34,666 nt of DNA from Dehalococcoidia bacterium (GTDB lineage: Bacteria; Chloroflexota; Dehalococcoidia; SZUA-161). Numbering within the stretch: position 1 is the stretch's first letter; each line of letters opens with the position of its first letter. The translations under genes and the position numbers were made by a program. The stretch lies in the NCBI GenBank assembly GCA_035529555.1, contig DATKWL010000116.1, positions 1 to 34,666 of the forward strand, written 5' to 3'. Below, in pieces: positions 5,996 through 24,284 of the stretch. The notes beneath the pieces are model-generated. The model was not told the origin of the DNA. It did not search any database and saw only the letters and a list, made by a program, of their open reading frames with translations.

Positions 5996-6010
5996 CTTCT
6001 ACATCCTCCG

Positions 6011-6061
6011 AAAAAGAAAGGAGCAAGCATTATTTTGCTCGCCCCGTTTTTATCTATTGTA
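6011..6061 (-). promoter_or_regulatory. leader hairpin copy U1 (GGGGCGAGCA/TGCTTGCTCC + U-tract) with upstream TACAAT
   Basis: The minus strand reads TACAAT..AAAAACGGGGCGAGCAAAATAATGCTTGCTCCTTTCTTTTTCGGAGG..ATG(5995). The -35 element is weak. Confidence 0.55.
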
Positions 6062-6075
6062 AGCCCTATCTTTAT

Positions 6076-6753
6076 CTAGGTCTTAATTTCGCTCTTTCTC
6101 CTTTCTATAAATTCCCTGAGCCTTTCCCTGACCTCACTGCAGGTATCGCATTCCTCTTCCGGGATTGACCACAGCCGGCTCATGAACTCCTCGGTAACCT
6201 GGCTTGCCCTGGCCGCCGCCTGCTCCATGGTTTCAACGTCCTTTATGGCGGTGATGGAGTGCCTCAGCTCCCTCGACTGCTTGAGTGTCCAGACTGCGAG
6301 TTCCTTCTCGACTCCCTTGAGTTTGGCGATCTCATCCGGGGCAAGATCGATGCGCTCCATGACATTGAGCTCATCGAGGGCGATGCGGATTCGCCTGGTT
6401 ACCTCCGGCTGTCTGACGCCCTTATCTCGGGCAAACCTTATCCCCTCAGAAAGGGATGAGGAGGTGACAGAGAGATGGTCGCGGGAGCAGGGTAAACACG
6501 CCGTGCCTGCAGATATCGACCCCGGTGATGGGGATATCTCATCTTGACCTGGTGGCGGTTCTTTTAGCGTCTCAGGGGCTGTGGCAGGGGTTGCGGACTC
6601 CTGCAGGCCAAATTTCGCCGCGGCCTGGTCGAACTTATTGGCAACCTTGTCAATAATGTTCAGCCCAGTCTCAATGGCGTCACCCGCCTTGTCGATCACG
6701 GAGAACGCGTCCTCGGGGCGGGGCAATTTAGGCAATCTTGGCATACGAACCAT
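6076..6753 (-). CDS. hypothetical protein, N-terminal MPRLPKLPRPE motif, CLPC and CDTC pairs (225 aa)
   Basis: The track ORF 6076..6807 runs through the leader hairpin. GGGAG lies 8 nt upstream of ATG 6753. Confidence 0.6.
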   Translation of the reverse strand: MVRMPRLPKLPRPEDAFSVIDKAGDAIETGLNIIDKVANKFDQAAAKFGLQESATPATAPETLKEPPPGQDEISPSPGSISAGTACLPCSRDHLSVTSSSLSEGIRFARDKGVRQPEVTRRIRIALDELNVMERIDLAPDEIAKLKGVEKELAVWTLKQSRELRHSITAIKDVETMEQAAARASQVTEEFMSRLWSIPEEECDTCSEVRERLREFIERRKSEIKT

Positions 6754-6772
6754 GTGAGTTACTCCCGTCCTT

Positions 6773-6820
6773 AAAAAAGGGGGCAAGCCCTTCTCAGCGA
6801 AGGTCACCTGCCCCGTTTTT
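6773..6820 (-). terminator. leader/terminator hairpin copy U2
   Basis: The minus strand reads AAAAACGGGGCAGGTGACCTTCGCTGAGAAGGGCTTGCCCCCTTTTTT, directly before the SD of gene 6076..6753. Confidence 0.65.
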
Positions 6821-6842
6821 CCGGTATTTTCCTCCCCACCTT

Positions 6843-6871
6843 ATTATTGTTTCAGAGGAGGGAATTGTCAA
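6843..6871 (-). promoter_or_regulatory. sigma70-like promoter TTGACA-17-AATAAT
   Basis: The -35 element (6866-6871) overlaps the TGA stop of gene 6868..8292. The -10 element is at 6843-6848. Confidence 0.45.
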
Positions 6872-8503: not shown

Positions 8504-8510
8504 TTTTTAA

Positions 8511-8565: not shown

Positions 8566-8610
8566 CAGAATCAAGCCGAGAAAGCCCCGCACTTTAGGGC
8601 TGGGGAGTAG

Positions 8611-8862: not shown

Positions 8863-8906
8863 CTCTAATACCTCCATCGCTTTAGCTGGGGGAAGCAACC
8901 CCCGCC

Positions 8907-8954
8907 AAAAAGGAGCGGGTCAAGTTACCTTCTCGGCGAAGGCTGCTTGCCCCG
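8907..8954 (-). terminator. leader hairpin copy U3
   Basis: The minus strand reads AACGGGGCAAGCAGCCTTCGCCGAGAAGGTAACTTGACCCGCTCCTTTTT, between the minus promoter and gene 8611..8862. Confidence 0.55.
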
Positions 8955-8964
8955 TTCTTCTGCC

Positions 8965-8993
8965 TTGACAAGTTGTAAAGTTAGATTTACAAT
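8965..8993 (+). promoter_or_regulatory. sigma70-like promoter TTGACA-17-TACAAT (rightward)
   Basis: -35 at 8965-8970 and -10 at 8988-8993. Confidence 0.6.
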
Positions 8994-9019
8994 ATACCAT
9001 ATGGGACAAAGGCTGTCAA
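8991..9019 (-). promoter_or_regulatory. sigma70-like promoter TTGACA-17-TATATT (leftward)
   Basis: -35 at 9014-9019 and -10 at 8991-8996 (reverse complement). Its -10 overlaps the rightward -10. Confidence 0.6.
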
Positions 9020-9123
9020 GCGTTACTACAGTCAATAGGACAAAGCACTCGTCGGAATTTCGACGGTTGTATGTCCGAAGGGGAGAAAGGGGGGGAATTT
9101 AGCGCTGCATTAAATTAAAAGGT

Positions 9124-9195
9124 AAAAAGGCGGTCAGTTGCTGAAACGAGAGTTTTGGCTGACCGTCTTTTCTCTCTATTCAGTAACTATCCCGC
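9124..9195 (+). repeat. 72-nt leader element copy A (bulged hairpin with GAGA tetraloop + U-tract)
   Basis: 69/72 identical to 20700-20771. Outer stem 9129-37/9159-67, inner stem 9141-47/9152-58, loop GAGA at 9148-51. Confidence 0.8.
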
Positions 9196-9240
9196 ACAAA
9201 AACGGGGCAAGCGAATCAATTGCTTGCCCTTTTCTTTTTT
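9196..9240 (+). terminator. leader hairpin copy (GGGCAAGCGA/TTGCTTGCCC + TTTTCTTTTTT)
   Basis: Stem 9205-14/9220-29, loop ATCAA. One nt different from the hairpin at 16429-16453. Confidence 0.7.
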
Positions 9241-9257
9241 CTGGCAGGAGTGGCGAC

Positions 9258-10064: not shown

Positions 10065-10066
10065 CC

Positions 10067-10495: not shown

Positions 10496-10499
10496 CGGA

Positions 10500-10757: not shown

Positions 10758-10759
10758 AA

Positions 10760-11425
10760 ATGATAGCTGAATTGCCCTTCGTTTTCTTAATCGCCGGGGC
10801 GGCCCTGGTTGGCCTGTGGATATCAAATATCCTCTTTGACCTAAAGGTCCCCCACTACGTCGCGCGTAAAATCGGCCACAGTGCCGGCGGGCTGGGCTTC
10901 CTGCTCTGCGCCCTATTATTTTCATCCGGGTGGTGGTCACTAATATTAGCCGCCATCTTTGCCGTCATGCTCGGGGGTGCCAGGTATGTCAGGCCCCAGA
11001 CTTTTCGTGGCGTGGGCGGCATCGGGCGGCCCGGGGAAGTGATGGCCGAGGTCTGGTTTCCCCTGGCTTCCTTGCCGGTTATCGGCGTGGGCTGGCTCTG
11101 GCTGGACAAGCCTTTGGTAGCCATATCCTGTCTTCTCTTTATGGCCTGGGGGGATATGATTACCGGAATTGTCCGCTCCCAGGTGTACGGCCGGCCAGTG
11201 AAGGGCCTGTGGGGTTCGGTGGCTATGCTCGCCACCTGCCTCGTGATCGCTTTGGCGTTTGTGCAACCGTTCTGGGTCGGGGCCGTGGCTGCCTTGGTGG
11301 CCACGGCTACCGAATGGGCCTGCGGGGATGTTGGGGTCATAAAATGCCTGGACGACAACCTGATGATACCGCTGACCAGCTTTGTCACTGTTTTCGGGAT
11401 ACTGGCTTTGATAGGGGAGCTATGA
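10760..11425 (+). CDS. polyprenol/phytol/dolichol kinase-like integral membrane protein (221 aa)
   Basis: Multi-TM protein. WGDMITGIVRS, KGLWGSVAM and DDNLMIPL match the CTP-dependent polyprenol kinase / CdsA superfamily pattern. Confidence 0.6.
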   Translation: MIAELPFVFLIAGAALVGLWISNILFDLKVPHYVARKIGHSAGGLGFLLCALLFSSGWWSLILAAIFAVMLGGARYVRPQTFRGVGGIGRPGEVMAEVWFPLASLPVIGVGWLWLDKPLVAISCLLFMAWGDMITGIVRSQVYGRPVKGLWGSVAMLATCLVIALAFVQPFWVGAVAALVATATEWACGDVGVIKCLDDNLMIPLTSFVTVFGILALIGEL

Positions 11426-11904
11426 GGGAACTGCTAACATTGCCCAATCCCATACTCAGGAAGAAGTGCCATCCGGTTGGCAACTTCAACAAAGAAATTA
11501 AGGAACTCATAGAAGAGTTGGCTGGTTATATGTATGCCCACCGCACCGATGAAATCGCCCCGATTGGGCTCACGGCCCCGCAACTTGGCGAATCCCTTCA
11601 GGTGATAGTCTTTTACCCCAACCCGGCCTTCCGGGAGAAGAAAGGGATAGAGGAGCTTATCAATCCGGAACTTGTCTATGCCAGAGAATCGATTACAGTT
11701 ACCGAGTCTTGCCTGAGCCTTCCGGGTAAAACATATACTCTCCAACGGGCAAAGCTGGTGAAGGTTCGAGGATACAACTTTGACGGACGCAAGAGGACAT
11801 ACAAAGCCAGGGCGCTCTTTGCCCAAATGTTTCAGCACGAACTAAATCACCTCGATGGCATACTCATAGACAGAATCGGAGAGCTTATCGTATTTAGGAA
11901 GTAG
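11422..11904 (+). CDS. def: peptide deformylase (160 aa)
   Basis: Has the three PDF motifs IGLTAPQLG, ESCLSLPG and QHELNHLDG. ATGA overlap with the upstream stop. The track ORF 10930..11904 is a spurious extension. Confidence 0.85.
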   Translation: MRELLTLPNPILRKKCHPVGNFNKEIKELIEELAGYMYAHRTDEIAPIGLTAPQLGESLQVIVFYPNPAFREKKGIEELINPELVYARESITVTESCLSLPGKTYTLQRAKLVKVRGYNFDGRKRTYKARALFAQMFQHELNHLDGILIDRIGELIVFRK

Positions 11905-11915
11905 AAGGAGAGGCA

Positions 11916-12803
11916 ATGAAAGATAAAATTAAAGCTCACATCGGGCTGGGGCGATTCTTCGCCCTGCCCATAGTTGTCTGCTCCGTCCTGCTTGGCGTTG
12001 CCCTCGTAGGTCACTGGAGCTGGCTATCTGCCATGGTGGCTCTCGGGGCCATATTCCAGATGGCCTATGCACACAGCTTTAACACGCTGCTGGATTTTTC
12101 CTGGACCGGGTTTGACAAGGGTGCTGAAGAGGAGCGGAGCCGAGGTAAGGTCTATACCCATGGCCAGCAGACGATAGCCGCCGGCATAATGTCCCCCAAA
12201 GAGGTGCTGGCCAACGGCCTTGTCTACCTTGCTATATCGGCTGTCTTCATCGGCATTGTCGCCTGGAAGGTATCACCGGTAATATGGATTATCTGGGCGA
12301 CTACAGCCTTGATGACGTTCTGGTATAGCTGGGGGAAGCTTCATTATCAGTGTGAGCTGGCACTGGGTATCGGCTTCGGCTCGCTGGCGGTGATGATGGG
12401 TATGGCCACCCAGCCGAACCCGGATTTCCTGCTGGCTTTTCTGGCGGGGATACCAATATTAATTTTGTTTGGATACGGGGCGGAGACAATGGATCAGTTC
12501 GCCGATGCGAGCGTGAATTGGAAGAGGGGATTGAGAAACTTCGGTGCCCTGGTGTGGAGAAACAAAGTCTCAATTACCATGTTCATCGTCTGGCTGCTTT
12601 GCGCCACCTTTCTCTCCCAGCTGTTTCTCATCGCCGCTGGAGTATTGCATCCGCTGACGGCACTAACACTCATCACCCTCATTCCCTTTTCTTTTTGCCT
12701 TCTCTTCCTGGAGATGAAACCCAAAGTCGGCATCATCTGGGGGCTGGGCGGAATTTATTTATATGGACTGCTACTACTGCTCGGGGAGGTACTTGGACGA
12801 TAA
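11916..12803 (+). CDS. UbiA-superfamily-like membrane prenyltransferase (295 aa)
   Basis: About 8-9 TM segments. Divergent Asp-rich motifs NTLLDFSWTGFD and DQFADASVNWKRG. GAAGGAGAGG SD. Confidence 0.55.
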   Translation: MKDKIKAHIGLGRFFALPIVVCSVLLGVALVGHWSWLSAMVALGAIFQMAYAHSFNTLLDFSWTGFDKGAEEERSRGKVYTHGQQTIAAGIMSPKEVLANGLVYLAISAVFIGIVAWKVSPVIWIIWATTALMTFWYSWGKLHYQCELALGIGFGSLAVMMGMATQPNPDFLLAFLAGIPILILFGYGAETMDQFADASVNWKRGLRNFGALVWRNKVSITMFIVWLLCATFLSQLFLIAAGVLHPLTALTLITLIPFSFCLLFLEMKPKVGIIWGLGGIYLYGLLLLLGEVLGR

Positions 12804-12826
12804 ATCCAAAGGTAAAAATAATATCC

Positions 12827-13849
12827 ATGGGCTATGCTGTCCCCGAGCATAGCTACAGTCAGGAAGAAGTATTCCAGGTGCTCGGGTACCCGCAGCGCTT
12901 CTGGAGGGTGTTCAAAGAGAGTGGGATTGAGAAGAGGCACCTTTGGGTACCGCCATGCGAAGCTAAGGAGATCAGCTGGCAGCAACAGCAGGAGATATAC
13001 AGGGTTGGGGCCGTAAAGCTTTCCCTGCAGGCGGTAAAAGAGTGTCTAGACAGCCGGAGCGCCGAGGATATCGCCTGCGTTGTCTATGGGAGTTGCACAG
13101 GATTTACCCCGGGACCGACGATAGCCCACTACCTGGCCAAAGAGTTATCTCTTGAACCCTCGACCTATTATACGAACATAATCGGGCAGGGATGCGAATC
13201 AGGCTTCCCCGGGCTCCGGAGAGCCTACGATTTTGCTGTAGCCACAGGAAAGCAAGCCCTGGTTGTCAACTGCGAGCTCTGCTCATGCACTTACTATCCC
13301 GAGCCTGCCGGCAGACCGGACCCTGAGAATCATTTTGAATGCTTGAGGAGCAATGCCATCTTTGCCGATGCTGCCTCCTGTGTTCTGGTGGGGTTTGATG
13401 AGAACCTGCGGCATCCTTCTATAATTGACATGGAGACACATACCAATACCGACTTCATCAATGAGCTCGGCTATACCTGGCGGTATGGCCGGCTAAGAGT
13501 TATGTTGTCGCGGCGGGTACCGGAACTGGCGCCACTGGTGGTTAAGCCGGCTGTCAATGCCGTGCTGCAGCGCCAGGGACTAAGTATTGACGACATAAGA
13601 TGGTGGGTGATCCACGCGGCTGGCAGCACAGTCTTGGACAACATAAGGGATGCACTTGGCATAGCCGAGGAAAAGGTAACTCTCTCGAGGGAAACATTGA
13701 GAAATTTTGGCAACACCAGCTCAACCTCGGTCGGCATTACCGGGAAGAGATTGATGGCGGGAGATATCCACCATGGAGATTATGCGGCGGTTTTGAGTAT
13801 CGGACCCGGCATGAGCGGCGGCATGACTCTCTTGCGCTTCGGAGGTTGA
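12827..13849 (+). CDS. type III polyketide synthase (chalcone-synthase-like, 340 aa)
   Basis: Cys-His-Asn triad contexts GQGCESG, WVIHAAGS and FGNTSSTS. The first ATG after the upstream stop is taken as start; the track extension overlaps the UbiA gene. Confidence 0.85.
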   Translation: MGYAVPEHSYSQEEVFQVLGYPQRFWRVFKESGIEKRHLWVPPCEAKEISWQQQQEIYRVGAVKLSLQAVKECLDSRSAEDIACVVYGSCTGFTPGPTIAHYLAKELSLEPSTYYTNIIGQGCESGFPGLRRAYDFAVATGKQALVVNCELCSCTYYPEPAGRPDPENHFECLRSNAIFADAASCVLVGFDENLRHPSIIDMETHTNTDFINELGYTWRYGRLRVMLSRRVPELAPLVVKPAVNAVLQRQGLSIDDIRWWVIHAAGSTVLDNIRDALGIAEEKVTLSRETLRNFGNTSSTSVGITGKRLMAGDIHHGDYAAVLSIGPGMSGGMTLLRFGG

Positions 13850-13850
13850 A

Positions 13851-14291
13851 GTGAGACTGCGAGATGCCCTGGCCAGCTTGCCTGATATAGACCACGAGAT
13901 TATTGACTGGTTGGCTGAAATAAATAGCTACAAGGGAGTATGCACCCTGAACTCATGTGCCGGACACAATAACCACTACAATCAACCATTTGTGATCCTG
14001 GCATTCTCCAAGGGCAGCCCCTTTCACAAGTTCTGCCACGAGATATCACCGGTGAGGTCTGATGTTAGTCCTGTGCTGACTCTGTTTTCTGACAAAGGCT
14101 GGGTAGCAGTATTTCCTCCAACAAAAGATATTAGTGTTGAACAAGGTAGCGGAGTAACACCAGAACGCTTGCCGACTGTTAGAAGGGACCTGTTTGAACG
14201 TATCATAGCAACACTGGAGAAGGTGATAGAAAGGAAGGCGAGTGTGAAGGAGATCGAGCGAAAAATAAAGGTGCTGGGGAGGGGGCTATAA
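13851..14291 (+). CDS. hypothetical protein (146 aa)
   Basis: GTG start with GGAGG 5 nt upstream. No family recognised. Confidence 0.55.
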   Translation: MRLRDALASLPDIDHEIIDWLAEINSYKGVCTLNSCAGHNNHYNQPFVILAFSKGSPFHKFCHEISPVRSDVSPVLTLFSDKGWVAVFPPTKDISVEQGSGVTPERLPTVRRDLFERIIATLEKVIERKASVKEIERKIKVLGRGL

Positions 14292-15224
14292 ATGGCAGTA
14301 TTGGTAACGGGGGGCACCGGGACGCTTGGTCGGGAGCTGGTTCACAATCTAGTCGCCAGAGGGCAAAAGGTAAGGATTCTGGCCAGAGACACTAAGAAGG
14401 CAGAGGAGCTTTTCAGCGGTTTGGAGATACTAAAGGGCAATGTCACCGAGGACAATCTTGGCCTGGTGGCTAATCCCCATGTTGATGCAGTATACCACCT
14501 GGCCGGTTTTCTTGACCTGAGTGAGAAACATCGAGACGACTTGTGGAACGTCAATGTCGCCGGCACGCAAAATGTCATCAAGCTCATGAAACTTTATGAG
14601 ATCCCCCACCTTTATTATTGTTCAACTGCATATACCCAGGGAAGGAACTGCTATGAGGAGACCAAAGCCACGGCCGAGAATTGGGTCAGGGAATCGGGCG
14701 TCAAGTACTCCATCTTTAAGCCCGGCATCATCGTCCCCAACTCCAGAACCTTCGAGATTGATAAGCCACAGCACCTTTATCTGGCGGCCAGGTTATGGGC
14801 CAGGCTCCACCGCCGGGCAGAGCCAATCAGGAAAAAATTAGAGAATAAACTTAATCTACCACCCAAGCAAATTAGCTGCCGGATAAAGGGTAACCCCAGT
14901 GCCACCTTGAACCTAGTTCAGGTTGACTGGATAGCAGAAAAAATGGCCAGCGTCCAGGACGAAGGCGTCTACATGCTCACCAGCCAAAGGCCGCTAAGGG
15001 TTTCTAAACTGCTGGAGTGGCTTGGTGAGGTCCTGTTTCTAAACCTCAAAGTGGAGCCTGAGTTCAAGCTGAGGCCACACGAGGCTTTATTTGACCGCCT
15101 GGCCAAGCCGTTCTTGGACTACGTACAAGATGATTTTTCCCGCTTTAAGCACTCATTCAATGACTGCCCTGCCATCAGCCGGGAATTTATTCAAAAGACA
15201 GTTATCAATAGTATTTTAAATTGA
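14292..15224 (+). CDS. NAD(P)-dependent extended SDR (epimerase/reductase family, 310 aa)
   Basis: VLVTGGTGTLGRELV Rossmann motif and a YEETK (YxxxK) motif. Confidence 0.8.
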   Translation: MAVLVTGGTGTLGRELVHNLVARGQKVRILARDTKKAEELFSGLEILKGNVTEDNLGLVANPHVDAVYHLAGFLDLSEKHRDDLWNVNVAGTQNVIKLMKLYEIPHLYYCSTAYTQGRNCYEETKATAENWVRESGVKYSIFKPGIIVPNSRTFEIDKPQHLYLAARLWARLHRRAEPIRKKLENKLNLPPKQISCRIKGNPSATLNLVQVDWIAEKMASVQDEGVYMLTSQRPLRVSKLLEWLGEVLFLNLKVEPEFKLRPHEALFDRLAKPFLDYVQDDFSRFKHSFNDCPAISREFIQKTVINSILN

Positions 15225-15249
15225 CTAACCCGCCCTAAGGGTTTAGAAT
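15221..15249 (+). promoter_or_regulatory. sigma70-like promoter TTGACT-17-TAGAAT without a downstream hairpin
   Basis: The -35 element overlaps the TGA stop of the SDR gene. The SD and ATG 15272 follow within about 20 nt. Confidence 0.55.
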
Positions 15250-15271
15250 TTTCAGCAAGGAGGGGCTTCTA

Positions 15272-15595
15272 ATGGTTATGGGGCAAGGCAAAGGTCTTCT
15301 GTCAGAGCTTGAAAGGAAATTGGGATTACCGCCGCTTTCCCAGGTCGCCGAAACCTTACAGAAATTTCCCGATATGCCAAGGCTGCGCCTGATCAAAAAC
15401 ATCCTTGAGGCCTGCGAGCGCCTTTCTCGCACCGCGCCCGAGCTGGAAAAGATTGTCACCCTGGTCAACCTGATTGCCGATACCCCTACCGATAGGCTGG
15501 AGAAGCTGGAGAAGATCCTGAAGCAGGCAAACAAGCTGGTGGCACATGCCCCGAATGGGCTGCTTGAGTTTCTGTCCTCTTTGAAGGAGGATTGA
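15272..15595 (+). CDS. hypothetical helical protein (107 aa)
   Basis: AAGGAGGGG SD. First gene after the hairpin-less promoter. Confidence 0.6.
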   Translation: MVMGQGKGLLSELERKLGLPPLSQVAETLQKFPDMPRLRLIKNILEACERLSRTAPELEKIVTLVNLIADTPTDRLEKLEKILKQANKLVAHAPNGLLEFLSSLKED

Positions 15596-15804
15596 TGATA
15601 ATAAGCCCTGTATTTGCTTTGATTGTTGCCGCGGTCGGTGCCGTGGGAGCAGTGGCTGGGGCTTCAGCCCTCGCCGTAGGAAGGAAAATAGGGCCGAACC
15701 TAACGCTGGCAGACATGTTGCCTCTCGCACCCTGGGAAGGTCCGCCCTTACCTAGATTCACCAAGACGAAGCCAGAGCTTCTTGCTGAGTTGAAGACGAG
15801 GTGA
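15595..15804 (+). CDS. small membrane protein with WEGPPLPRF motif (69 aa)
   Basis: N-terminal Gly/Ala-rich TM helix. GAAGGAGG SD. TGATG coupling with the upstream stop. Confidence 0.55.
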   Translation: MIISPVFALIVAAVGAVGAVAGASALAVGRKIGPNLTLADMLPLAPWEGPPLPRFTKTKPELLAELKTR

Positions 15805-15809
15805 AAACA

Positions 15810-16013
15810 ATGGTTATTGAAATCAAAACTACAGTAGCTTGCCCTATCTGTTCTGAGCAAATACCCGGTGTAGTAGATAAAATAACAAGAACTGATGTTT
15901 TGATGGGTCATCTTGTCACAGTACATGGAAGCCAAGCAAGACCAGCCACACCATTGGAGGGACCACCCCTGCCCAGAGCGTTAGGTATTCACTGGCCATG
16001 GAGGAAGCCTTGA
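15810..16013 (+). CDS. small zinc-finger-like protein with C-terminal LEGPPLPRALGIHWPW motif (67 aa)
   Basis: Has CPIC...HLVTVH. GAGGTG lies 6 nt upstream of ATG 15810. The track ORF starts at GTG 15801. Confidence 0.5.
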   Translation: MVIEIKTTVACPICSEQIPGVVDKITRTDVLMGHLVTVHGSQARPATPLEGPPLPRALGIHWPWRKP

Positions 16014-16378
16014 TCCTGCAGTTAGTTGAATCTGACAGACCAAAGACGGTCGGTGAGAAAATCGCCGAGTTTCTGGCTCGGCCTCCCCAGCCTGTGCTCA
16101 AGTTTTACGGCGATTTCAGCACTGAGACAGCCGACGGCAAAAGGCACCTGTTCTTCGCGATAAGAAACGGGCTGCCGCTTCCCCTTTTCTATGGAATATA
16201 TGTCAGATCTAGTTATGACGGATTCATAGACTACATGGAGAAGACAGACCATATCGGCCCCTTCAGCACTGACGACTGGCGTCTGACGCTGGACACCACG
16301 GGGCCGGCTCAGGCAGAAATTCGCTTGGGGCTTCTCCCGTTTGAAATTTTAACCGACAAGTCTCAGGTTGCAGTTTAG
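15998..16378 (+). CDS. hypothetical protein (126 aa)
   Basis: ORF overlaps the upstream gene by 16 nt. No clear SD. Confidence 0.5.
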   Translation: MEEALILQLVESDRPKTVGEKIAEFLARPPQPVLKFYGDFSTETADGKRHLFFAIRNGLPLPLFYGIYVRSSYDGFIDYMEKTDHIGPFSTDDWRLTLDTTGPAQAEIRLGLLPFEILTDKSQVAV

Positions 16379-16407
16379 TTGACCTTCTCAAAATTCTAGT
16401 TTACAAT
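16379..16407 (+). promoter_or_regulatory. sigma70-like promoter TTGACC-17-TACAAT
   Basis: Starts immediately after the TAG stop at 16376-78. Confidence 0.6.
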
Positions 16408-16418
16408 TGGTGAAAAGG

Positions 16419-16464
16419 CAGAAAAATGGGGCAAGCAAATCAATTGCTTGCCCTTTTCTTTTTT
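16419..16464 (+). terminator. intrinsic-terminator-like hairpin between promoter and RBS
   Basis: Stem 16429-38/16444-53 (10 bp), loop ATCAA, then TTTTCTTTTTT at 16454-64. Confidence 0.7.
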
Positions 16465-16477
16465 GGTGAGGTTGTAA

Positions 16478-16807
16478 ATGACAGTTAGCCAAGACTGCCT
16501 AGAGAAAGCCTACCACATTTACGAAGCCCATGAATGTGCCCACGCTGCATCGAGGGAAGCACTAAGCCGGGATAAAAAGTCTGCCGAGATGTATTTGAAC
16601 CTGATAAATCAGCACTTATATGCCGCGGATGCTTCACTTTCACCGGAGACTAAAATGGAATTGAATCGTGATCTGGCAGAAGCAAGAAAGTTGATTTACC
16701 AGGATGATAAAAATGCCGTCTTCTCGCTAGGTCGCTTTCTGGATAAGACGAAGGAATTGATGTTTGAAGTCGCCGTGGCCTGCGAGTGCCGGAAAGGAGG
16801 GCAATGA
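16478..16807 (+). CDS. helical Cys-motif paralog (109 aa, C-terminal ACECR)
   Basis: GGTGAGG lies 6 nt upstream. Same Cys pattern as three minus-strand genes. Confidence 0.6.
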   Translation: MTVSQDCLEKAYHIYEAHECAHAASREALSRDKKSAEMYLNLINQHLYAADASLSPETKMELNRDLAEARKLIYQDDKNAVFSLGRFLDKTKELMFEVAVACECRKGGQ

Positions 16808-17178
16808 TGCTAAGGTTTAAGTTACCGAAACTCCCTGGCCAAAAAGAACCACCGAAGCTATGGCCGCCAACATTACCCTCGACCACCATTCCCACGCCCT
16901 TTGGGAAAGTGTCCCTCCCCGAGCACAAAATAGGGCTGCCTAAAATGCCATCCCTCGACAAGAGAACCGGCAGTGCCATGAAGCACGCCGTCGGCATCGA
17001 CCTGTCAATAATACCAGGCCTTCTTCCTTTCGTGGGGGACGTGGTCGCGGACGTAGTAGAAGACCTCCATGGTGCTGAATTAAGGAAAATACTGACCTCA
17101 AAAGAGTATGATGAGTTTCTAAAACAGGACAAGATAGCCCCGGCTATAATAGCGATGGCGCGGACATTGACGAAATAA
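16804..17178 (+). CDS. hypothetical protein with N-terminal FKLPKLPGQKEPPKLWPP (124 aa)
   Basis: ATGA-type overlap with the upstream stop, and an AAGGAGGG SD. Confidence 0.55.
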   Translation: MMLRFKLPKLPGQKEPPKLWPPTLPSTTIPTPFGKVSLPEHKIGLPKMPSLDKRTGSAMKHAVGIDLSIIPGLLPFVGDVVADVVEDLHGAELRKILTSKEYDEFLKQDKIAPAIIAMARTLTK

Positions 17179-17191
17179 GGGGAGGCGAGAG

Positions 17192-19699
17192 ATGGAACGA
17201 GCTGAACTGGCTGACGCACCAGAAATCGCAACGATAGAAATAACAGAACCTCTTCCTGAGAGCGGGGTCGTTGACAGCACCTACAAGATTAAAGGCTCAG
17301 TCAAAATGTTTGATGCCATAGGCGCCCCACCCTGGGTTTACGCCGAGGTTAGGTTAAAGGAGTGGGACAAGCCGGAGGTTGCTGAGGAGGTCAGTTACGA
17401 GCGCGGCTTTCCCATGCCGATAACCGGTGAATTTACCATTGAGTTCAAGCCGGAGAAAGAGGGAGATTACGAAATTACTGTTCTGGCTACCCCAGCACCT
17501 TTATCCCTACCCGTCATCGGGGTATTCCCGGTCACCGGCAAGAGCGATGTAATGAAGGTTGCCGTTGGCGAAAGGCCGCCAGCGGTGTTCAGATTCTCGG
17601 ACGTAACGATTGACGAGAATGATATAGCGCTTACCGACCACGATGCTGATTCCGGATTGCTGCTGGAGAAAACCACGGCCGATTATCTGGACATAACCCC
17701 GGCCTTTGAGTGGACGGGTCCCAGCAAGAAGGCCACTGTAAGCATAAAGGCCGGATACAGGGATTGGCTCGGTGCTTTTAGCCCCAAGACGGGGGCTTAT
17801 ACGCGCACCATTACGCTGCCTGAATCACCTACTACTCCCTATTCCGGCGAACTTGAAAGCCCGATAAGGATTCCACTTACCGCCTGCAGCGGCATTACCG
17901 ATGGCGCCATAGAGATGGTGCTCAAGATAGCCAGGGAGCCCGACTACATCAGTCGTATCTGGAACGTCTACGCCACCAAAGCTCCGCCTGAAGCGTTAGA
18001 CTTCGATTTAACAAGGCCTAGCGTCTCCCAAACCCCCGTAGACCCGGGAACCATCATAGACATCACTTGCCCCATTACCTCGAGGTGCGAGAAGGCGGTT
18101 GATGCCCGTGCCAAGGTCATTATCTATGAGGGGTCAGCTCTTCCCGGTCATGGTAGTAAGATTAAGCAATACGATAGCGATGTGTTCCATATAGAGCCGA
18201 ACGAGAGCACAAATGTCGTTGTCCACCACACGGCAGTCAAGGGCACCATAGACAGGCGGGATGTGGAGGTGGAGGTATACGTTGACACGCAGCTGGTCAA
18301 GGAGAGCGAGTGGGATGACGTGTTCTACGTCGGTGTACCGCCAGAAGAGGTAATCGACTTTAACCTGACAAGACCCACAGTTACTCCAGCGGAAATCGCT
18401 CCGGGAACACCTATCACGATAACGTGCCCGGTGACCTCGGCCTGCACCAAGGAGCAAACGGCCACCGCTCAGGTTAAGATTTATGAAGGCAGTTTTTATG
18501 CCGGCCACGGGACCCTGATAACCACCAAGAATTCACCAGCCTTCTCCATAGCACCAGGCCAGGCTTATAATGTCATCGTTCAACACACCGCTATAGCCGG
18601 CACAATTGACCGTCGTGATGTTGAGGTTGAGATTTATATCGGTGGCAAGCTGGTCAAGGAGAGCGAGTGGGATGATATTTACTATGTAATTATCCCCCCC
18701 CCACCACCCGTGCCTCCCACATCTGATATTAGGAACTTTGACTTTCAGCCAGTGAAGGGCACTTATGATGTTGGAGACAGAGTATCCTATAGTGCCCCCT
18801 ACGAATACAAGGGCAAGGCTCAAGGCGGCTGGCTGACAATCTACCTCGGCACAGGAGTGTATCCCTATTTCTCTATCAAGCATACCTACCCCAGGACTGC
18901 GGTAAGTTTTGGTGAGGCGATGGACTGGACATTGGGCCAATTGTCAGGAAACTTCCTCCTGCCAAGCACACTGGTGCCCGGCCAGACATACAATGTCAGG
19001 GCTAAATTAGAGACTGCTGATGGCAAGCAGATAATTGACACCGACTGGGGAGTGATTACCATCCCCGAGATAACACCGCCTCCACCGCCTGTGCCACCCG
19101 CGGCGGACATCAGGAATCTCGACCTTGTGGCCACCAAGGGCACCTATGACATTGGCGACAGAGTGCCATTCACTTGCAATTATGAATACAAGGGAAAGGC
19201 GCAAGGCGGCCATCTTGTCCTTTCACTGGGCACCGGCGTATATCCAACCTTCAGCACGGTGGTAAACTACTACCCGATGCCAGTCAGCTTCGACGAGGCG
19301 ATGGACTGGACCCGGCGCAGTTTTACGGGAACTTTCCTTTTGACTGAAGCCCTTAATCCCGGGCGGACCTATAACACCAGAGCCAAGCTGGAAACTCTAG
19401 ATGACCGCACGAAGGAAACCGACACCGACTGGGAGGTGGTGAGAATACAGGAAGCGGCACCTCCCGGAGAATATACCGTTTTTGTCCTAGCGCTGCCCCT
19501 TGCTGCCGGATGGGTCACCAAGGAGCCGGATAAGGACTCATACGCTTATGGCGAAACGGTGAAGCTGACCGCCATGAGCGCCCCCGGCTACAAGTTTTCT
19601 TACTGGCAAGTTGACGGCGAGTGGGCGGGCTATAGCAGCACCCTGACCCTCATGGTAACCACGGATCTCGAAGTGAGAGCGTATTATACAAAGGTGTAG
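17192..19699 (+). CDS. large multi-domain repeat protein, candidate virion or surface protein (835 aa)
   Basis: GGGGAGG SD. Has an internal 118-aa repeat x2 (aa 265-501) and a 127-aa repeat x2 (aa 502-755), each B copy preceded by PPPPPVPP. The C-terminal approx 80 aa fit the InlB B-repeat-like pattern (YGETVKLTAMSAPGYKFSYW). No signal peptide. Confidence 0.8.
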   Translation: MERAELADAPEIATIEITEPLPESGVVDSTYKIKGSVKMFDAIGAPPWVYAEVRLKEWDKPEVAEEVSYERGFPMPITGEFTIEFKPEKEGDYEITVLATPAPLSLPVIGVFPVTGKSDVMKVAVGERPPAVFRFSDVTIDENDIALTDHDADSGLLLEKTTADYLDITPAFEWTGPSKKATVSIKAGYRDWLGAFSPKTGAYTRTITLPESPTTPYSGELESPIRIPLTACSGITDGAIEMVLKIAREPDYISRIWNVYATKAPPEALDFDLTRPSVSQTPVDPGTIIDITCPITSRCEKAVDARAKVIIYEGSALPGHGSKIKQYDSDVFHIEPNESTNVVVHHTAVKGTIDRRDVEVEVYVDTQLVKESEWDDVFYVGVPPEEVIDFNLTRPTVTPAEIAPGTPITITCPVTSACTKEQTATAQVKIYEGSFYAGHGTLITTKNSPAFSIAPGQAYNVIVQHTAIAGTIDRRDVEVEIYIGGKLVKESEWDDIYYVIIPPPPPVPPTSDIRNFDFQPVKGTYDVGDRVSYSAPYEYKGKAQGGWLTIYLGTGVYPYFSIKHTYPRTAVSFGEAMDWTLGQLSGNFLLPSTLVPGQTYNVRAKLETADGKQIIDTDWGVITIPEITPPPPPVPPAADIRNLDLVATKGTYDIGDRVPFTCNYEYKGKAQGGHLVLSLGTGVYPTFSTVVNYYPMPVSFDEAMDWTRRSFTGTFLLTEALNPGRTYNTRAKLETLDDRTKETDTDWEVVRIQEAAPPGEYTVFVLALPLAAGWVTKEPDKDSYAYGETVKLTAMSAPGYKFSYWQVDGEWAGYSSTLTLMVTTDLEVRAYYTKV

Positions 19700-19700
19700 A

Positions 19701-19955
19701 ATGCCGAACGAAGAATGGGAAAAAGTAAAGCAAGCTTTGAAAAAGCCGGCAACGCCGGAGGCGATGAAAGAAGCCGCCCAAGCCTTTGAGCGATACCAGG
19801 TGGTGAAGTTGGCCAAAGGCAAGGGCTCCAAGCCGACGCTGGTTACCCTGGGCCGGGGGAGAGGGTACCCCAACGCTGTTCCAGTGAACAAAATCCCTGA
19901 GGAGCTGGCCAAGAACCCCAATTTCTTCAACCTCATGCAGAGGGTGGTGAAGTAA
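19701..19955 (+). CDS. hypothetical basic protein (84 aa)
   Basis: Starts 2 nt after the upstream stop. Confidence 0.55.
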   Translation: MPNEEWEKVKQALKKPATPEAMKEAAQAFERYQVVKLAKGKGSKPTLVTLGRGRGYPNAVPVNKIPEELAKNPNFFNLMQRVVK

Positions 19956-20633
19956 ATGCCTGTCGCAGTGCTGATGTCTGACTATGACCTTCCCACTCGC
20001 TCCGCCTCTGGGTTTGTGCTCAGATATATAGCGCCTAGGTTGGAGCCTGTGCACCTTTACGCCATCATGGCGAGGAGAGTGCCCTTTGAGCTTTCCGCGC
20101 CACAATCCGACTTAATCATCGGAGTCGGCCATGGAGATGAAGTCGGCTTCAGCGGGCAGAACGAGGCAGTGATTCTCGAGGTTGGCAAATATAACCCCGT
20201 GGAAGTTAGAGGCAAGGTGATAAAGCTCTTGTCCTGCCAGACCGGCATAGCACTCGGCCCCGATCTGGTAAAAAATGGTGCAGCGGCTTTCCTTGGCTAT
20301 GTGGACGATTATGTGTGGCTTTGCGATGCTGATCTTGCTTCAACGCCCTGGTCTGATAAGATGGCCACCGCCTGTCTCATGCCGGTGGTAGATTCGCTGA
20401 ACGCACTGCTTGATGGCAAAACATGCCGCGAAGCTTTCCAGATAGAGCTGGACGGCTACTCGAGGAATGCCGAGGTTGAAGAGGACGAACTGGCAAAAAG
20501 CTGTTTAGAGTTCAACCGAGAAAATGCCGTCCTGCTTGGGGATCCAGCGGGGCGGGTAAGAAAACGACCCAAACTCCCTTTGCCATTTCGGTTGGTGCCA
20601 CCGCCTCCGCTTTTAGTGCCTTTAAGGAGGTGA
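19956..20633 (+). CDS. candidate clan-CD-like cysteine peptidase with proline-rich tail (225 aa)
   Basis: IIGVGHGDE (His59) and KLLSCQTG (Cys94), 35 residues apart, resemble the gingipain/caspase His-Gly ... Cys dyad. Tail is KRPKLPLPFRLVPPPPLLVPLRR. Pattern-level evidence only. Confidence 0.45.
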   Translation: MPVAVLMSDYDLPTRSASGFVLRYIAPRLEPVHLYAIMARRVPFELSAPQSDLIIGVGHGDEVGFSGQNEAVILEVGKYNPVEVRGKVIKLLSCQTGIALGPDLVKNGAAAFLGYVDDYVWLCDADLASTPWSDKMATACLMPVVDSLNALLDGKTCREAFQIELDGYSRNAEVEEDELAKSCLEFNRENAVLLGDPAGRVRKRPKLPLPFRLVPPPPLLVPLRR

Positions 20634-20658
20634 TACCAAAAATAAACTAAATAAAAAC

Positions 20659-20688
20659 TTGACAAATTTCTGTCCCTGTGTTTAGAAT
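20659..20688 (+). promoter_or_regulatory. sigma70-like promoter TTGACA-18-TAGAAT with an AT-rich upstream tract
   Basis: -35 at 20659-64 and -10 at 20683-88. The sequence AAAAATAAACTAAATAAAAAC lies upstream. Confidence 0.6.
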
Positions 20689-20699
20689 TGTAGCGGGAT

Positions 20700-20771
20700 A
20701 AAAAGGCGGTCAGTTGCTGAGACGAGAGTTTTGGCTGACCGCCTTTTCTCTTTATTCAGTAACTATCCCGC
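20700..20771 (+). repeat. 72-nt leader element copy B
   Basis: Outer stem 20705-13/20735-43, inner stem 20717-23/20728-34, loop GAGA at 20724-27, followed by TTTTCTCTTT. Confidence 0.8.
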
Positions 20772-20777
20772 CCGCTC

Positions 20778-20835
20778 AAAAACGGGGCAAGCAACCTTCC
20801 CCGGAAGGTTTGAACGGCTTGCCCCGTTCCTTTTT
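20778..20835 (+). terminator. leader hairpin copy (CGGGGCAAGC ... GCTTGCCCCG with inner ACCTTC/GAAGGT stem + U-tract)
   Basis: Outer stem 20783-92/20817-26, followed by TTCCTTTTT. Confidence 0.65.
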
Positions 20836-20872
20836 GGTGAGGGTTGCTTCCCCAGAGTAAAAGGAGGGTGAC

Positions 20873-21187
20873 ATGCCTAATAAGCTTCCGGAGCCAACAA
20901 CTATTATTAGTGCCTTAGGAGGCGGAGCTATTGATCTGGCCGAGGGGCCGGTAATAGCTGCCATCAACACCGCCGGAGTCGCCCAGGAATTTGCCAATAA
21001 TGTCAAAGGTAACCTTGACAACCTCAAGAAGGGGATACCCCAAGACCCGTCAGCTATACCTGATTTTGCGGTGAGGGCAGTCACGCACACGATTTCTGAC
21101 GGCTTGGGTTTCTTCGAGGGCCTCGGCAAAGCGGCAACGCAAACTTTTGAAAGTGTCCGCGGTGAGCTCAGGAGAATCACAGGTTAA
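20873..21187 (+). CDS. hypothetical protein, N-terminal MPNKLPEP (104 aa)
   Basis: AAAAGGAGGG SD. First gene after the double-hairpin leader. Confidence 0.6.
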   Translation: MPNKLPEPTTIISALGGGAIDLAEGPVIAAINTAGVAQEFANNVKGNLDNLKKGIPQDPSAIPDFAVRAVTHTISDGLGFFEGLGKAATQTFESVRGELRRITG

Positions 21188-24197: not shown

Positions 24198-24251
24198 AGC
24201 CTTGGCGGCGGAATACCGCTCTTTGTTTGGGCCGTTTGCCAAGGCTTTTTT
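24198..24251 (+). terminator. rho-independent terminator closing the 20873-24194 operon
   Basis: Stem AGCCTTGGC (24198-206) / GCCAAGGCT (24238-46), with an internal GCGG..CCGC mini-stem, then TTTTTT. Confidence 0.6.
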
Positions 24252-24284
24252 GGGGGCAATGTCTGAAGGAATTTTACTATAACT

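Follow-up and report, generated by a model that had tools for sequence, protein, structure and literature searches.

The window analyzed here, a stretch of 34,666 nucleotides from a Dehalococcoidia bacterium, contains six near-identical leader cassettes, distributed over both strands and each located before the first gene of an operon, and the promoter-terminator arrangement of these operon starts points to a cluster-wide transcription switch. We propose that each cassette acts as an intrinsic terminator within its leader, the set of them gating a regulon, and that termination is relieved by a putative sequence-specific factor, a reading to which we assign a rough probability of 45%. The anatomy of the cassettes, their conservation, their pairing in the sense-strand RNA, their modularity and the alternative pairing of their arms can be followed directly in the window and in related loci, and it is the RNA hairpin itself, and not a promoter-embedded site, that is conserved.

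Promoter and leader hairpin of operon B

The first-pass annotation had described, at 16379-16480, a near-consensus promoter followed by a textbook intrinsic terminator and a ribosome-binding site, and all of these elements were recovered there base for base:

16379..16407, + strand: promoter B, TTGACC-17 nt-TACAAT (scan score 10/12), directly 3' of the TAG stop codon (16376-78) of a 126-aa gene
16418..16468, + strand: leader cassette B, short type (63.4 bits with CM R1)
16465..16480, + strand: SD GGTGAGG (16465-71) and ATG (16478) of a 109-aa gene, opening operon B (16478-20633)

Cassette B is composed, in this order, of an A-run, a hairpin (GGGGCAAGCAA-ATCAA-TTGCTTGCCCT, 16428-16454) with a GC-rich stem of 11 bp, a T-run (16454-16464) and the first part of the SD, and its hairpin is separated from the -10 by 20 nt, which include the run AGAAAAA. 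The -35 and -10 elements show no variation in 11 orthologous sequences, and they are unchanged even in those orthologues that have an insert of 13-15 nt between the stop codon and the -35. The hairpin is predicted to fold with a dG of -17.7 kcal/mol, and the 67-nt putative transcript of site B with -22.3 kcal/mol (z = -3.0 versus shuffles). Its description as a terminator agrees with the scoring: a d'Aubenton-Carafa-type score d amounts to about +26 in the sense and about -6 in the antisense direction, and the hairpin and its twin at 9204-30 are the top two terminator-like sites in a pattern scan (11 pairs, 6 GC, tail TTTCTTTTTT), the hairpin core having no chance matches in the shuffled window.

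In lambdoid phages, the PR'-tR' unit (6S RNA) consists of a strong promoter and an intrinsic terminator within tens of nucleotides, with a short terminated RNA as the default product. The likeness to this unit that had been pointed out for site B stands as regards the layout of promoter, short leader, terminator and genes, and a lambda-type Q mechanism, in which a DNA-binding protein would engage a promoter-proximal paused polymerase and make it resistant to all downstream terminators, could draw on further features of the B-type promoters. In their spacers, AAATTCT is conserved and makes up an inverted repeat together with the AGAATT(T) of the -10, and the early transcribed region of some orthologues carries a -10-like TAAAAT; integrases nearby and a relative listed in IMG/VR would fit such a mechanism as well. 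Beyond the layout, however, the likeness is lost. The Q family is unmatched among the ORFs tested, Pfam gives no antiterminator match, at least six gates are present, and the same hairpin is found behind several promoter classes that differ in spacers and distances. The early transcribed segment with its TAAAAT-like or TGAAAAG sequences is absent from the other promoter classes and deleted in one B-type orthologue (L013_B), and a conserved, co-evolving RNA hairpin would be superfluous for a processive mechanism that is indifferent to the terminators it passes. We consider Q-type control of these operons very unlikely.

Cassettes and promoters in the window

The order of promoter, terminator and SD claimed for site B is kept in its orthologues and recurs at six operon starts, with the general layout GAAAAAC-GGGGCAAGC-loop-GCTTGCCCC-TTTCTTTTT-SD and, almost always, a strong sigma70-like promoter upstream. 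A search of the window with CM R1 returns precisely the six cassette sites, on their sense strands, and these end 15-47 nt 5' of the operon-first start codons. Nine promoter-like sites score at least 10/12 in the window (4.1 +/- 2.0 in shuffles), and five of them, including all four that reach 11/12, lie directly upstream of a cassette hairpin and are co-oriented with it; the arrangement exceeds what chance would give. Besides site B, the relevant features are:

8965..9019, both strands: divergent promoters with overlapping -10s (both 11/12), TTGACA-17-TACAAT (8965-8993, +) leading to leader A and TTGACA-17-TATATT (9019-8991, -) leading to leader E
9194..9244, + strand: leader cassette A, short type (59.4 bits; d about +25), hairpin 9204-9230 and T-run, preceding ATG 9258 of a ParA/Mrp-like gene, the first of operon A
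8888..8963, - strand: leader cassette E, long type (51.6 bits), hairpin 8953-8917, mismatched at two positions of its basal stem, then GCTCCTTTTT and, at about 8902-8888, a distal element, preceding an RHH-like gene with likely start ATG 8862
20659..20688, + strand: promoter C, TTGACA-18 nt-TAGAAT (11/12), kept in C-type orthologues
20774..20853, + strand: leader cassette C, long type (62.8 bits), hairpin 20784-20825 bearing an additional apical helix, followed by GTTCCTTTTT and by GGGTTGCTTCCCC (20841-20853), a distal element that is the complement of the 5' arm; ATG 20873
6766..6871, - strand: promoter D, TTGACA-17-AATAAT (6871-6843; 11/12), and leader cassette D (54.3 bits; hairpin 6814-6780, CTTTTTT), preceding the likely ATG 6753 of a 243-aa gene
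6006..6084, - strand: weak promoter F, AAGACC-17-TACAAT (8/12), and leader cassette F (58.0 bits; d about +14; hairpin 6045-6020, TTTCTTTTT), with the -10 just 10 nt from the stem; ATG 5995
15221..15249, + strand: conserved promoter TTGACT-17-TAGAAT before a 107-aa gene (ATG 15272), without a cassette in the window
24198..24252, + strand: ordinary operon-end terminator AGCCUUGGCGGC...GCCAAGGCU followed by U6, unrelated in sequence to the cassettes and included as a contrast case

Cassettes A, B and F agree well with the criteria for intrinsic terminators, having stems of 10-11 bp with 6 GC pairs, loops of 5-6 nt, tails TTTCTTTTTT or TTTCTTTTT and d values from +14 to +26 that turn negative in the antisense direction. 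The fit is only loose for cassettes C, D and E, in which 1-5 non-U bases separate stem and U-run and d is negative; their poor scores as terminators count against the gating reading.

The cassette is modular, in that it can be present or absent behind one conserved promoter: the orthologues of the 15221 promoter in loci L013, L018 and L115 do carry it. The element is thus dispensable at this promoter, an observation that counts against the gating reading as well.

Four cassettes (B, C, D and F) are situated at operon junctions, where their hairpin is the sole terminator available to the upstream operon, and the initial suggestion that the hairpin of site B might simply be the terminator of the preceding operon is partly upheld there, as a second role. 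As a sole role it fails, since the region of A and E has divergent promoters and offers no co-directional upstream gene that could be terminated, so that a plain upstream-terminator reading cannot cover the family. A broader version of this idea would have the cassettes act, without any factor, as dual-use terminators and insulators that efficiently end upstream transcripts and are passed more often by polymerases fresh from the nested promoter, whose sigma would still be bound or whose NusA and NusG would not yet be loaded, or that leak at a low constitutive level, a dedicated regulator being unnecessary. The promoters squeezed between the upstream stop codon and the hairpin, or overlapping them, at B, C, D and F, the short -10-to-stem distance (8-39 nt) at many sites, the absence of the cassette in cases where promoter and gene remain and the lack of an antiterminator gene among the ORFs tested all speak for this explanation, and leader terminators elsewhere have been documented as NusA-dependent (PMC12691694). 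On the other hand, nothing lies upstream of A and E that would call for insulation, the terminators of leader A and of hp2 in leader C are about 90-230 nt from their promoters, and the constant stem sequence across copies and diverged genomes, together with its lineage-specific versions, would be left unexplained, the cluster's own operon-end terminator being unrelated. On balance, factor-less passage seems unlikely to us.

Conservation of the cassettes across related loci

About 45 further cassette copies occupy equivalent positions in related loci, which comprise metagenome contigs and MAGs labelled mostly Dehalococcoidia and one IMG/VR contig, and all but one of the copies tabulated for these relatives have an ATG at most 53 nt downstream. 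Pairing is found in 99.7% of 297 stem cells, a percentage inflated by the use of tools that favour paired stems to gather the sites, and five of the nine base pairs of the stem display double-sided (compensatory) changes, such values of pairing and compensation being attained in none of 500 shuffles. Every one of the 35 non-Watson-Crick stem cells is G·U or U·G when read in the orientation of the gene; this strand asymmetry, which is unaffected by the way in which the sites were gathered, shows selection on the sense RNA. The U-run, conserved like the stem, supplies some of the most informative cassette positions, and no information is found upstream of the hairpin beyond the A-run. Loops are variable, ranging from 4 to 24 nt and being A/U-rich or sometimes containing an extra helix, and stem dG values extend from -13 to -27 kcal/mol.

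Conservation also concerns the sequence of the stem. The window and locus L007 have identical stems within flanking leaders that share no similarity, and the sole homologue compared between them, likely a paralogue of the 109-aa protein, has 57% identity. Certain stem variants are common to all copies of a genome (GGGGCGAGC at three of three sites in L005; GGGGGCGA[GA]C in L011 and L013), and a distant lineage has a separate stem consensus, GGGG[CT]TGAC...GTC[AG][GA][TC]CCC. Selection thus seems to act on the stem sequence and not on structure alone, which implies a sequence-specific reader. The uniformity of stems within a genome could partly reflect gene conversion or duplication instead of a reader.

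High-scoring copies are confined to loci of this cluster family. Of 100 unrelated loci in which the core pattern occurs, none exceeds 40 bits apart from one Dehalococcoidales contig, and for L119, a complete Dehalococcoidia chromosome with a pattern match, no CM match was among those listed. A comparison with Rfam found nothing in the window at gathering thresholds and nothing at E <= 1 over 5900-21000.

Conserved arms around a variable spacer, presence/absence polymorphism and genome-specific variants common to all copies are also features that could be put down to a selfish palindrome of the REP/REPIN or MITE kind, with no dedicated regulatory role, or to a palindromic operator in the DNA, bound by a dimeric regulator, and two small DNA-binding proteins are indeed encoded beside the divergent promoters. 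Such an origin strikes us as highly improbable. The copies are limited to this cluster family, where they always keep one orientation with respect to the gene that follows and always lie between promoter and SD, no Y1/RAYT transposase-like match appears among the scanned ORFs, the strand-specific G·U pattern indicates that it is the sense RNA that is selected, and a dimeric operator could not accommodate arms spaced anywhere between 4 and 24 nt. A DNA operator of fixed spacing is ruled out by the variable loop length in combination with the G·U strand bias.

Alternative folding of the leaders

An additional hairpin with its own U-run, hp1, is restricted to A- and C-type leaders:

9129..9177, + strand: hp1 of leader A, hairpin GGCGGTCAG...CTGACCGTC then TTTTCTCTCT (19 pairs, 9 compensatory)
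20705..20771, + strand: hp1 of leader C, hairpin 20705-20743, T-run 20744-20753 and distal complement of the 5' strand at about 20757-20771

In leader A the distal complement of the hp1 5' strand is located at about 9181-9195, and the 73-nt stretch that spans hp1 (9123-9195) has 96% identity to 20699-20771. Present in one or two copies per genome, hp1 drifts via ordinary compensatory change, unlike the cassette stem, and its alternative helix is 90% paired in register as opposed to 17-64% when slid. Long-type cassette leaders also possess a distal complement (z from -4 to -7 versus shuffles), which co-varies with the 5' arm between two lineages. The duplex of 5' arm and distal element reaches -26.1 kcal/mol in leader C (z = -7.1), the full-length MFE of which is the alternative fold (-43.4 kcal/mol), and a z of -4.8 in leader E. 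The alternative fold of the long leaders was judged by per-sequence duplex energies against shuffles; MAFFT lost the register of the apical helix. The predicted folds of full-length leaders place the U-tract in a helix and leave the SD unpaired, and if the terminator hairpin is retained the SD tends to be taken up in pairing with the U-tract or CCCC. The refolded read-through products look selected. Two other candidates were rejected: an upstream antiterminator, for which the CCCG...CGGG pairing before hp2 is weak and inconsistent across orthologues, and ribosome-mediated attenuation via a leader peptide, leaders A and C holding only TTG-start ORFs without an SD.

The same folds are relevant to an explanation in which the element would be a 5'-UTR module for stability or translation and not a terminator, the hairpin shielding the mRNA from 5' decay, the U-rich tract by the SD providing a landing or standby site for the ribosome (S1) and the A-run or the distal complement holding the anti-SD-like U-tract off the SD. 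Short-type hairpins end 15-25 nt ahead of the start codon, a distance that varies rather little, with the U-run adjoining the SD, the full-length fold pairs the U-tract and frees the SD, and the cassettes resemble the Cluster K mycobacteriophage repeats SAS/ESAS (PMC3203893). Transcripts of F-type sites and of L013_B would have the start of the stem 1-4 nt from their 5' end, a position that also fits a 5' stabiliser. Most B-type sites, by contrast, would have about 13 nt of single strand ahead of the hairpin (assuming a start about 7 nt past the -10) and leaders A and C more than 100 nt, and leaders with such a single-stranded 5' stretch protect poorly. In addition, intrinsic terminators are defined by just this anatomy, a GC-rich stem with 8-10 U directly after it; the U-run equals the stem in conservation, and stabiliser hairpins have no need of a conserved sequence. 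We deem a module of this type, taken in place of a terminator, quite unlikely.

Gene content and genomic setting

The genes of the cluster encode lipid or polyketide enzymes and many uncharacterised small proteins and include a sugar-modification operon; integrases are located near it, and one related contig is catalogued in IMG/VR. The 109-aa protein is confidently modelled as a four-helix bundle, for which comparisons with PDB and BFVD were uninformative (best E 0.08 and 0.15, respectively) and a PDB sequence search gave no match. No antiterminator family was found by Pfam among the 50 window ORFs scanned or by NCBIfam and PHROGs among the ORFs tested. Specifically, there is no NusG paralogue (NGN, KOW) among the scanned ORFs of the 34.7-kb window and of L027, no ANTAR-domain protein among the Pfam-scanned window ORFs and no CAT or PyrR domain protein among the scanned ORFs. 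This lack of a candidate antiterminator gene among the ORFs tested counts against the gating reading.

Recognised regulators are limited to two DNA binders encoded beside the divergent promoters, one a winged-helix protein and the other probably of the RHH type. A weak winged-helix similarity of an 83-aa protein was the sole NCBIfam result for ten small proteins, and PHROGs returned one match for ten larger proteins, to a family of unknown function. The window and five related loci contain no tRNA genes, and megablast of 8900-21000 against phage and plasmid databases returned nothing. A protein-pattern search with the 109-aa family recovered no relatives in GTDB genomes or IMG/VR, whereas the hairpin DNA pattern recovered relatives in both. 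The IME1 elements of Dehalococcoides were rejected as a counterpart, their gene content being different and including a pI-like ATPase (10.64898/2026.09.15.751708).

Proposed mechanism and significance

The recurrent order of elements and the divergent arrangement of A and E make gating by attenuation or antitermination, as first put forward for operon 16478-20633, the best-supported reading, in which termination and read-through, the relief of termination and the existence and nature of a factor are what we infer from the DNA. At site B, RNA polymerase would start near 16414 and by default end at the U-tract after about 50 nt, and at the junction sites the cassette hairpin would also terminate the upstream operon. 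Expression of the operon would require a trans-acting factor recognising the conserved hairpin sequence, the simplest target being (A)AAC-GGGGCAAGC, the 5' arm as it appears in nascent RNA, and this factor might either stop the hairpin from completing locally or load onto the polymerase. In the long-type leaders C and E, and at hp1, read-through transcripts would then refold, with the 5' arm pairing with the distal complement, the U-tract being buried and the SD left free. Because the same element is found on all operons, one factor would switch the entire cluster. Relief of several leader or internal terminators of a locus by one factor has been described for EutV/ANTAR (PMC3369931), and LoaP likewise acts on several leader terminators in one locus (PMC12691694).

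A more far-reaching proposal, possible but in our view rather doubtful, is that the cassettes are the cis-elements of an undescribed antitermination system belonging to a novel integrative, possibly viral, Dehalococcoidia element. An element-encoded, sequence-specific RNA-binding protein or RNA would read the terminator arm at every operon start and thereby license the whole element, refolding would commit the mRNA to translation, and the terminator would serve as an address label that co-evolves with its reader, giving rise to lineage-specific versions. Given the integrases nearby, the relative in IMG/VR and the genes of the cluster, the switch may control the life cycle of an unrecognised mobile element or virus.

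If the cassettes are conditional terminators with a specific reader, they represent an RNA motif new to cis-regulation and point to an antiterminator family that is new as well, in subsurface Dehalococcoidia, an uncultured lineage whose gene regulation is essentially unstudied. The hairpin motif is also a practical marker, having located loci in species-representative genomes that the protein pattern missed.

Comparison with known systems

Lambda PR'-tR' resembles the operon starts described here in having a promoter and then a close terminator ahead of the controlled genes, but lambda has one late promoter-terminator unit for one late operon, whereas six units with different promoters are found here on both strands. 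Moreover, lambda depends on the Q gene and a DNA site in the promoter, and here no Q-family gene is detected and the terminator hairpin is conserved as RNA. For the NusG paralogue LoaP, several leaders of the dfn and mln polyketide clusters contain a near-identical small hairpin, each with an intrinsic terminator, and this hairpin is the specificity determinant of the antiterminator (PMC12691694). The setting is likewise a biosynthetic cluster with a polyketide synthase, as here; however, the LoaP recognition hairpin (UNCG loop) is separate from the terminator and upstream of it, whereas here the conserved hairpin is the terminator, the cassette loops are variable and not UNCG, and the window has no NusG-like gene.

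One RNA-binding regulator and a motif repeated within one locus are also characteristic of PyrR attenuators and of the RAT sites of BglG/SacY. The same applies to EutV/ANTAR in the Enterococcus eut locus, in which the RNA motif is repeated at leader and intergenic terminators (PMC3369931). The ANTAR (dual hexaloop hairpins) and BglG/SacY (RAT) motifs overlap the 5' arm of the terminator, whereas the cassettes have no upstream antiterminator structure.

The SAS/ESAS repeats of Cluster K mycobacteriophages, for which a role in translation initiation was proposed by their authors (PMC3203893), are like the cassettes in being element-specific inverted repeats with a variable spacer, placed just 5' of a subset of start codons in one orientation, with genome-specific differences in consensus and an occasional clean absence at an orthologous gene. 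They differ in that ESAS has 17-bp imperfect arms without a U-run and is paired with a 13-bp SD-containing SAS, whereas the cassettes combine 9-bp GC-rich stems with A- and U-runs and a sigma70-like promoter upstream; the 13-bp SAS GGGATAGGAGCCC with its 17-bp imperfect inverted repeats is not matched by the cassette consensus.

Finally, the zipper-type attenuator of pLS20 also operates in a mobile-element operon with a long leader, and its terminator arm has a second complementary partner (PMC13401043). In pLS20 this partner is upstream and the antiterminator forms before the terminator, whereas the partner in the cassettes lies downstream of the U-tract and, being 3' of it, could act only after read-through. 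Among the systems compared, a promoter nested upstream of a shared terminator with a downstream refolding complement is a design without a close described counterpart, and it would be a compact combination of operon insulation and co-regulation.

Leader cassettes in the window

Site B, the promoter and hairpin ahead of the start codon at 16478, is of greater interest than an isolated promoter-terminator unit would be, since it belongs to a family-wide motif. On sequence evidence, this cassette (A-run, hairpin, T/U-run and Shine-Dalgarno (SD) start ahead of an operon-first gene) is an RNA motif, unannotated, conserved and co-evolving, found at the operon starts of an uncharacterised element of Dehalococcoidia. 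All elements that the first-pass annotation had named for site B were found in place by sequence inspection, the promoter matching at 10/12 in a consensus scan:

16376-78, forward strand: TAG stop codon
16379-84 and 16402-07, forward strand: promoter B, TTGACC and TACAAT, 17-nt spacer
Between the -10 and the stem, forward strand: 20-nt stretch containing AGAAAAA
16428-54, forward strand: stem GGGGCAAGCAA/TTGCTTGCCCT, loop ATCAA
16454-64, forward strand: T-run, then GGTGAGG, then ATG 16478

The putative 67-nt transcript of site B folds at -22.3 kcal/mol (z = -3.0), and its d'Aubenton-Carafa-type terminator score is about +26 in sense and negative in antisense; hairpin B and a near-twin at 9204-30 are the top two terminator-like sites in 18 kb in the consensus scan. 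Good support for the predicted B-type promoter comes from 11 orthologous sequences, all of which share TTGACC and TTTA[CG]AAT without variation, four of them despite an interval of 13-15 nt from the stop codon to the -35.

The hairpin and T-run of site B recur at 9194-9240 (94% identical), and a longer form of them lies at 20771-20842. A fuzzy scan, followed by a covariance model of the cassette (R1, built from 18 seeds), locates exactly six sites in the window, with the following R1 hairpins:

9204-30, forward strand: site A
16428-54, forward strand: site B
20784-825, forward strand: site C
6814-6780, reverse strand: site D
8953-17, reverse strand: site E
6045-20, reverse strand: site F

All six cassettes stop 15-47 nt short of an SD and operon-first start codon, and five lie downstream of one of the best sigma70-like promoters of the window, which holds nine promoter-like sites of at least 10/12 (4.1 +/- 2.0 in shuffles); all four sites at 11/12 feed a cassette. 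Operon C ends in an ordinary terminator (24198-24252) that is unrelated in sequence, and the cassette motif is therefore leader-specific. Sites B, C, D and F have their promoter squeezed in between hairpin and preceding stop codon, or overlapping these, and the upstream operon has no other predicted terminator than the hairpin. Sites A and E flank a divergent promoter pair (8965-9019) with overlapping -10 elements and hence cannot terminate any upstream gene. A factor-less terminator or insulator in dual use, relying on promoter-proximal escape or leakiness, would suit the former four sites better than the latter two, and we regard it as rather unlikely.

The -10 hexamers of the divergent 11/12 promoters (8988-8993 and 8991-8996) overlap, so that RNA polymerase binding should be mutually exclusive; the genes for the RHH-like and winged-helix proteins lie behind one promoter, the biosynthetic operons behind the other, and the region may be a switch. 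Separately, the promoter alignment reveals AAATT(T)CT in both B- and C-type promoters, forming an inverted repeat with AGAATT(T) of the -10 region (16390-16407 and 20664-20690; spacing 5 nt in B, about 11 nt in C) that may be an operator overlapping the -10.

The cassette is also modular. The promoter of the 107-aa gene (15221-49) is kept in six genomes; a cassette lies between it and the SD in L013 (809-859), L018 (210-262) and L115 (3172-3217), and is cleanly missing behind it in the window, L005 and L009. The IMG/VR relative L152 (2572-3248) passes from the 126-aa to the 123-aa gene homologue with no B module in between, lacking promoter, hairpin and 109-aa gene alike; the module behaves like an inserted unit.

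Conservation of the hairpin

Across 43 sites of the window-type lineage (lineage 1), information is confined to GAAAAAC-GGGGCAAGC-loop-GCTTGCCCC-TTTCTTTTT-GG. At 33 short-type sites read in sense orientation, standard pairs occupy 99.7% of 297 stem cells and five of the nine stem pairs show double-sided changes; neither shuffled nor slid controls came near this pairing. Departures from Watson-Crick pairing number 35, every one of them G·U or U·G when read with the gene and an A·C mismatch when read on the opposite strand. Loops range from 4 to 24 nt, with an extra helix possible. Pairing, the strand pattern of G·U and loop variation show a hairpin under selection in the sense RNA, not as a DNA operator. 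A selfish palindrome or DNA operator, with which the presence or absence of the cassette behind one promoter would accord, is on these grounds the least probable of the readings weighed.

The stem is identical in the window and L007, where the flanking leader has no similarity (the single protein compared there, probably a paralogue of the 109-aa protein, is 57% identical). Small stem variants are common to all copies of one genome, and a distant lineage (L021, L026, L027 and L028) builds this architecture on a stem of its own, GGGG[CT]TGAC...GTC[AG][GA][TC]CCC. Unlike the cassette stem, hp1, an extra hairpin upstream of it in A- and C-type leaders, has diverged through compensatory substitutions of the usual kind (at 9 of its 19 pairs). 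Family members reach 42-64 bits in the covariance model, with several sites per locus, and unrelated loci bearing the core pattern at most 40 bits, L098 excepted. Rfam gave no match at gathering thresholds over the whole window, and none with E values up to 1 over 5900-21000.

Short and long leaders

Short-type leaders (A, B and F) show canonical terminator anatomy and lack additional complementarity. Long-type leaders (C, E and orthologues) have a few non-U bases ahead of the U-run and, 3' of it, a distal element complementary to the 5' arm (in C, 20841-53, GGGTTGCTTCCCC). This duplex amounts to -20 to -26 kcal/mol, with z of -4 to -7 against shuffles (near 0 for the short type), and between the two lineages the distal element and the 5' arm vary together. 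Of the 14 full-length long leaders of lineage 1 that were folded, nine have as their minimum-energy fold the alternative helix, in which the U-tract is buried and the SD stays free; for leader C of the window this helix reaches -43.4 kcal/mol versus -24.1 for the terminator hairpin. The covariation-supported hp1 is likewise followed by a U-run and a spacer complementary to its 5' strand, the alternative helix being 90% paired in register versus 17-64% slid. The 73 nt at 9123-9195 and 20699-20771 (leaders A and C), which contain hp1, its U-run and the spacer, are 96% identical ahead of unrelated genes.

Lying downstream of the U-run, the alternative partner is unable to prevent termination and can only remodel read-through transcripts. 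A refolding element acting only after read-through implies that such transcripts would exist and be under selection. A 5'-UTR stability and translation module would accord with the free SD, less so with the canonical terminators of the short type, and seems distinctly unlikely.

Relatives and gene content

The window is of metagenomic origin, with identical copies in four ENA assemblies. Homologues of the 109-aa protein (46-98% identity) yielded 25 further loci. A protein-pattern search of GTDB species genomes returned no relatives; the hairpin DNA pattern returned 11 loci there, ten of them confirmed by proteins similar to those of the window. The eleventh, L098, has no such similarity, its sole link being a 48-bit covariance-model match. 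Taxon labels are Dehalococcoidales, Dehalococcoidia or Chloroflexota in 9 of the 11, and mis-binning is suspected for the other two. IMG/VR holds one syntenic contig of 44.9 kb (L152, UViG_3300031643_000637), and tyrosine integrases lie close to the cluster in L007 and L027. The gene content of the window is:

Operon A: ParA/Mrp-like ATPase, UbiA-type prenyltransferase, type III polyketide synthase, reductase
Operons B and C: uncharacterised proteins and an 835-aa InlB-B-repeat protein
24467-33800: nine-gene sugar-nucleotide modification operon
Left arm, reverse strand: many small uncharacterised ORFs, one winged-helix protein

No tailed-phage hallmarks were seen in a PHROGs scan of ten larger proteins, and the cluster is possibly part of an integrative, perhaps viral, element, differing in gene content from the Dehalococcoides IME1 elements.

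Several further features were observed. The cluster, whose relatives adjoin integrases, unites two unusual gene sets: one at 9258-15224, with the proteins listed for operon A (the reductase being fatty-acyl-reductase-like) and weak SCP2 similarity, and one at 24467-33800, encoding a cytidylyltransferase/kinase, radical SAM-SPASM, dehydratase, TPP enzyme and two methyltransferases. The first gene behind hairpin F encodes a 133-aa Cys-rich protein (5594-5995, reverse strand), the sole PHROGs match among the ten proteins scanned (phrog_23287, function not assigned, E = 8e-19). A 474-aa coiled-coil-like protein (6868-8292, reverse strand) carries a perfect-register 138-nt tandem duplication, 95% identical (7262-7537), with repeats reading LDKLNQLGMLKKTG. 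The 835-aa protein (17192-19699), with three or four diverged repeats of about 360-380 nt (18291-19438) and a C-terminal InlB B-repeat (Flg_new_2) domain, may be surface or adhesin-like. In distant relatives (L020, 5108-5908; L023, 3656-4648), the 109-aa four-helix-bundle domain is fused to that of the 163-aa protein (1682-2173, reverse strand, in the window). In L027, GGGGGCCGGGGGTTCGAATCCCCGGCCCCC (19492-19521), about 5.4 kb from an integrase gene, resembles a tRNA T-arm and may be an attachment-site remnant; ARAGORN called no tRNA there.

Proposed mechanism and known systems

The first-pass annotation had likened site B to lambda PR'-tR' and proposed gating of the operon at 16478-20633. That interpretation is partly supported: its layout and likely gating hold up, neither the comparison with lambda Q nor the restriction to one operon does, and a true lambda-Q-type mechanism, suggested by the element order at B, is very improbable for a six-site family. 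The most economical reading, to which we assign a rough probability of 0.45, takes the cassettes as terminator gates in the leaders of one regulon. RNA made from each promoter, or arriving from the operon upstream, would by default end at the U-run, and a factor reading the conserved hairpin sequence would lift termination at every operon at once. Such a reader would be needed because hairpin conservation is sequence-level and lineage-specific. Known antiterminator domains were absent from the ORFs scanned (window, ten small proteins and L027), no leader peptide was found in leaders A and C, and the leaders showed no antiterminator structure upstream of the terminator.

In EutV/ANTAR (PMC3369931) and LoaP (PMC12691694) a single factor acts at several leader or internal terminators, which sets a precedent. 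The ESAS repeats of Cluster K mycobacteriophages, themselves still unexplained (PMC3203893), closely resemble the cassette phenomenon, and the pLS20 zipper attenuator is arranged in reverse to the long leaders described here, in which the partner lies downstream of the U-run.
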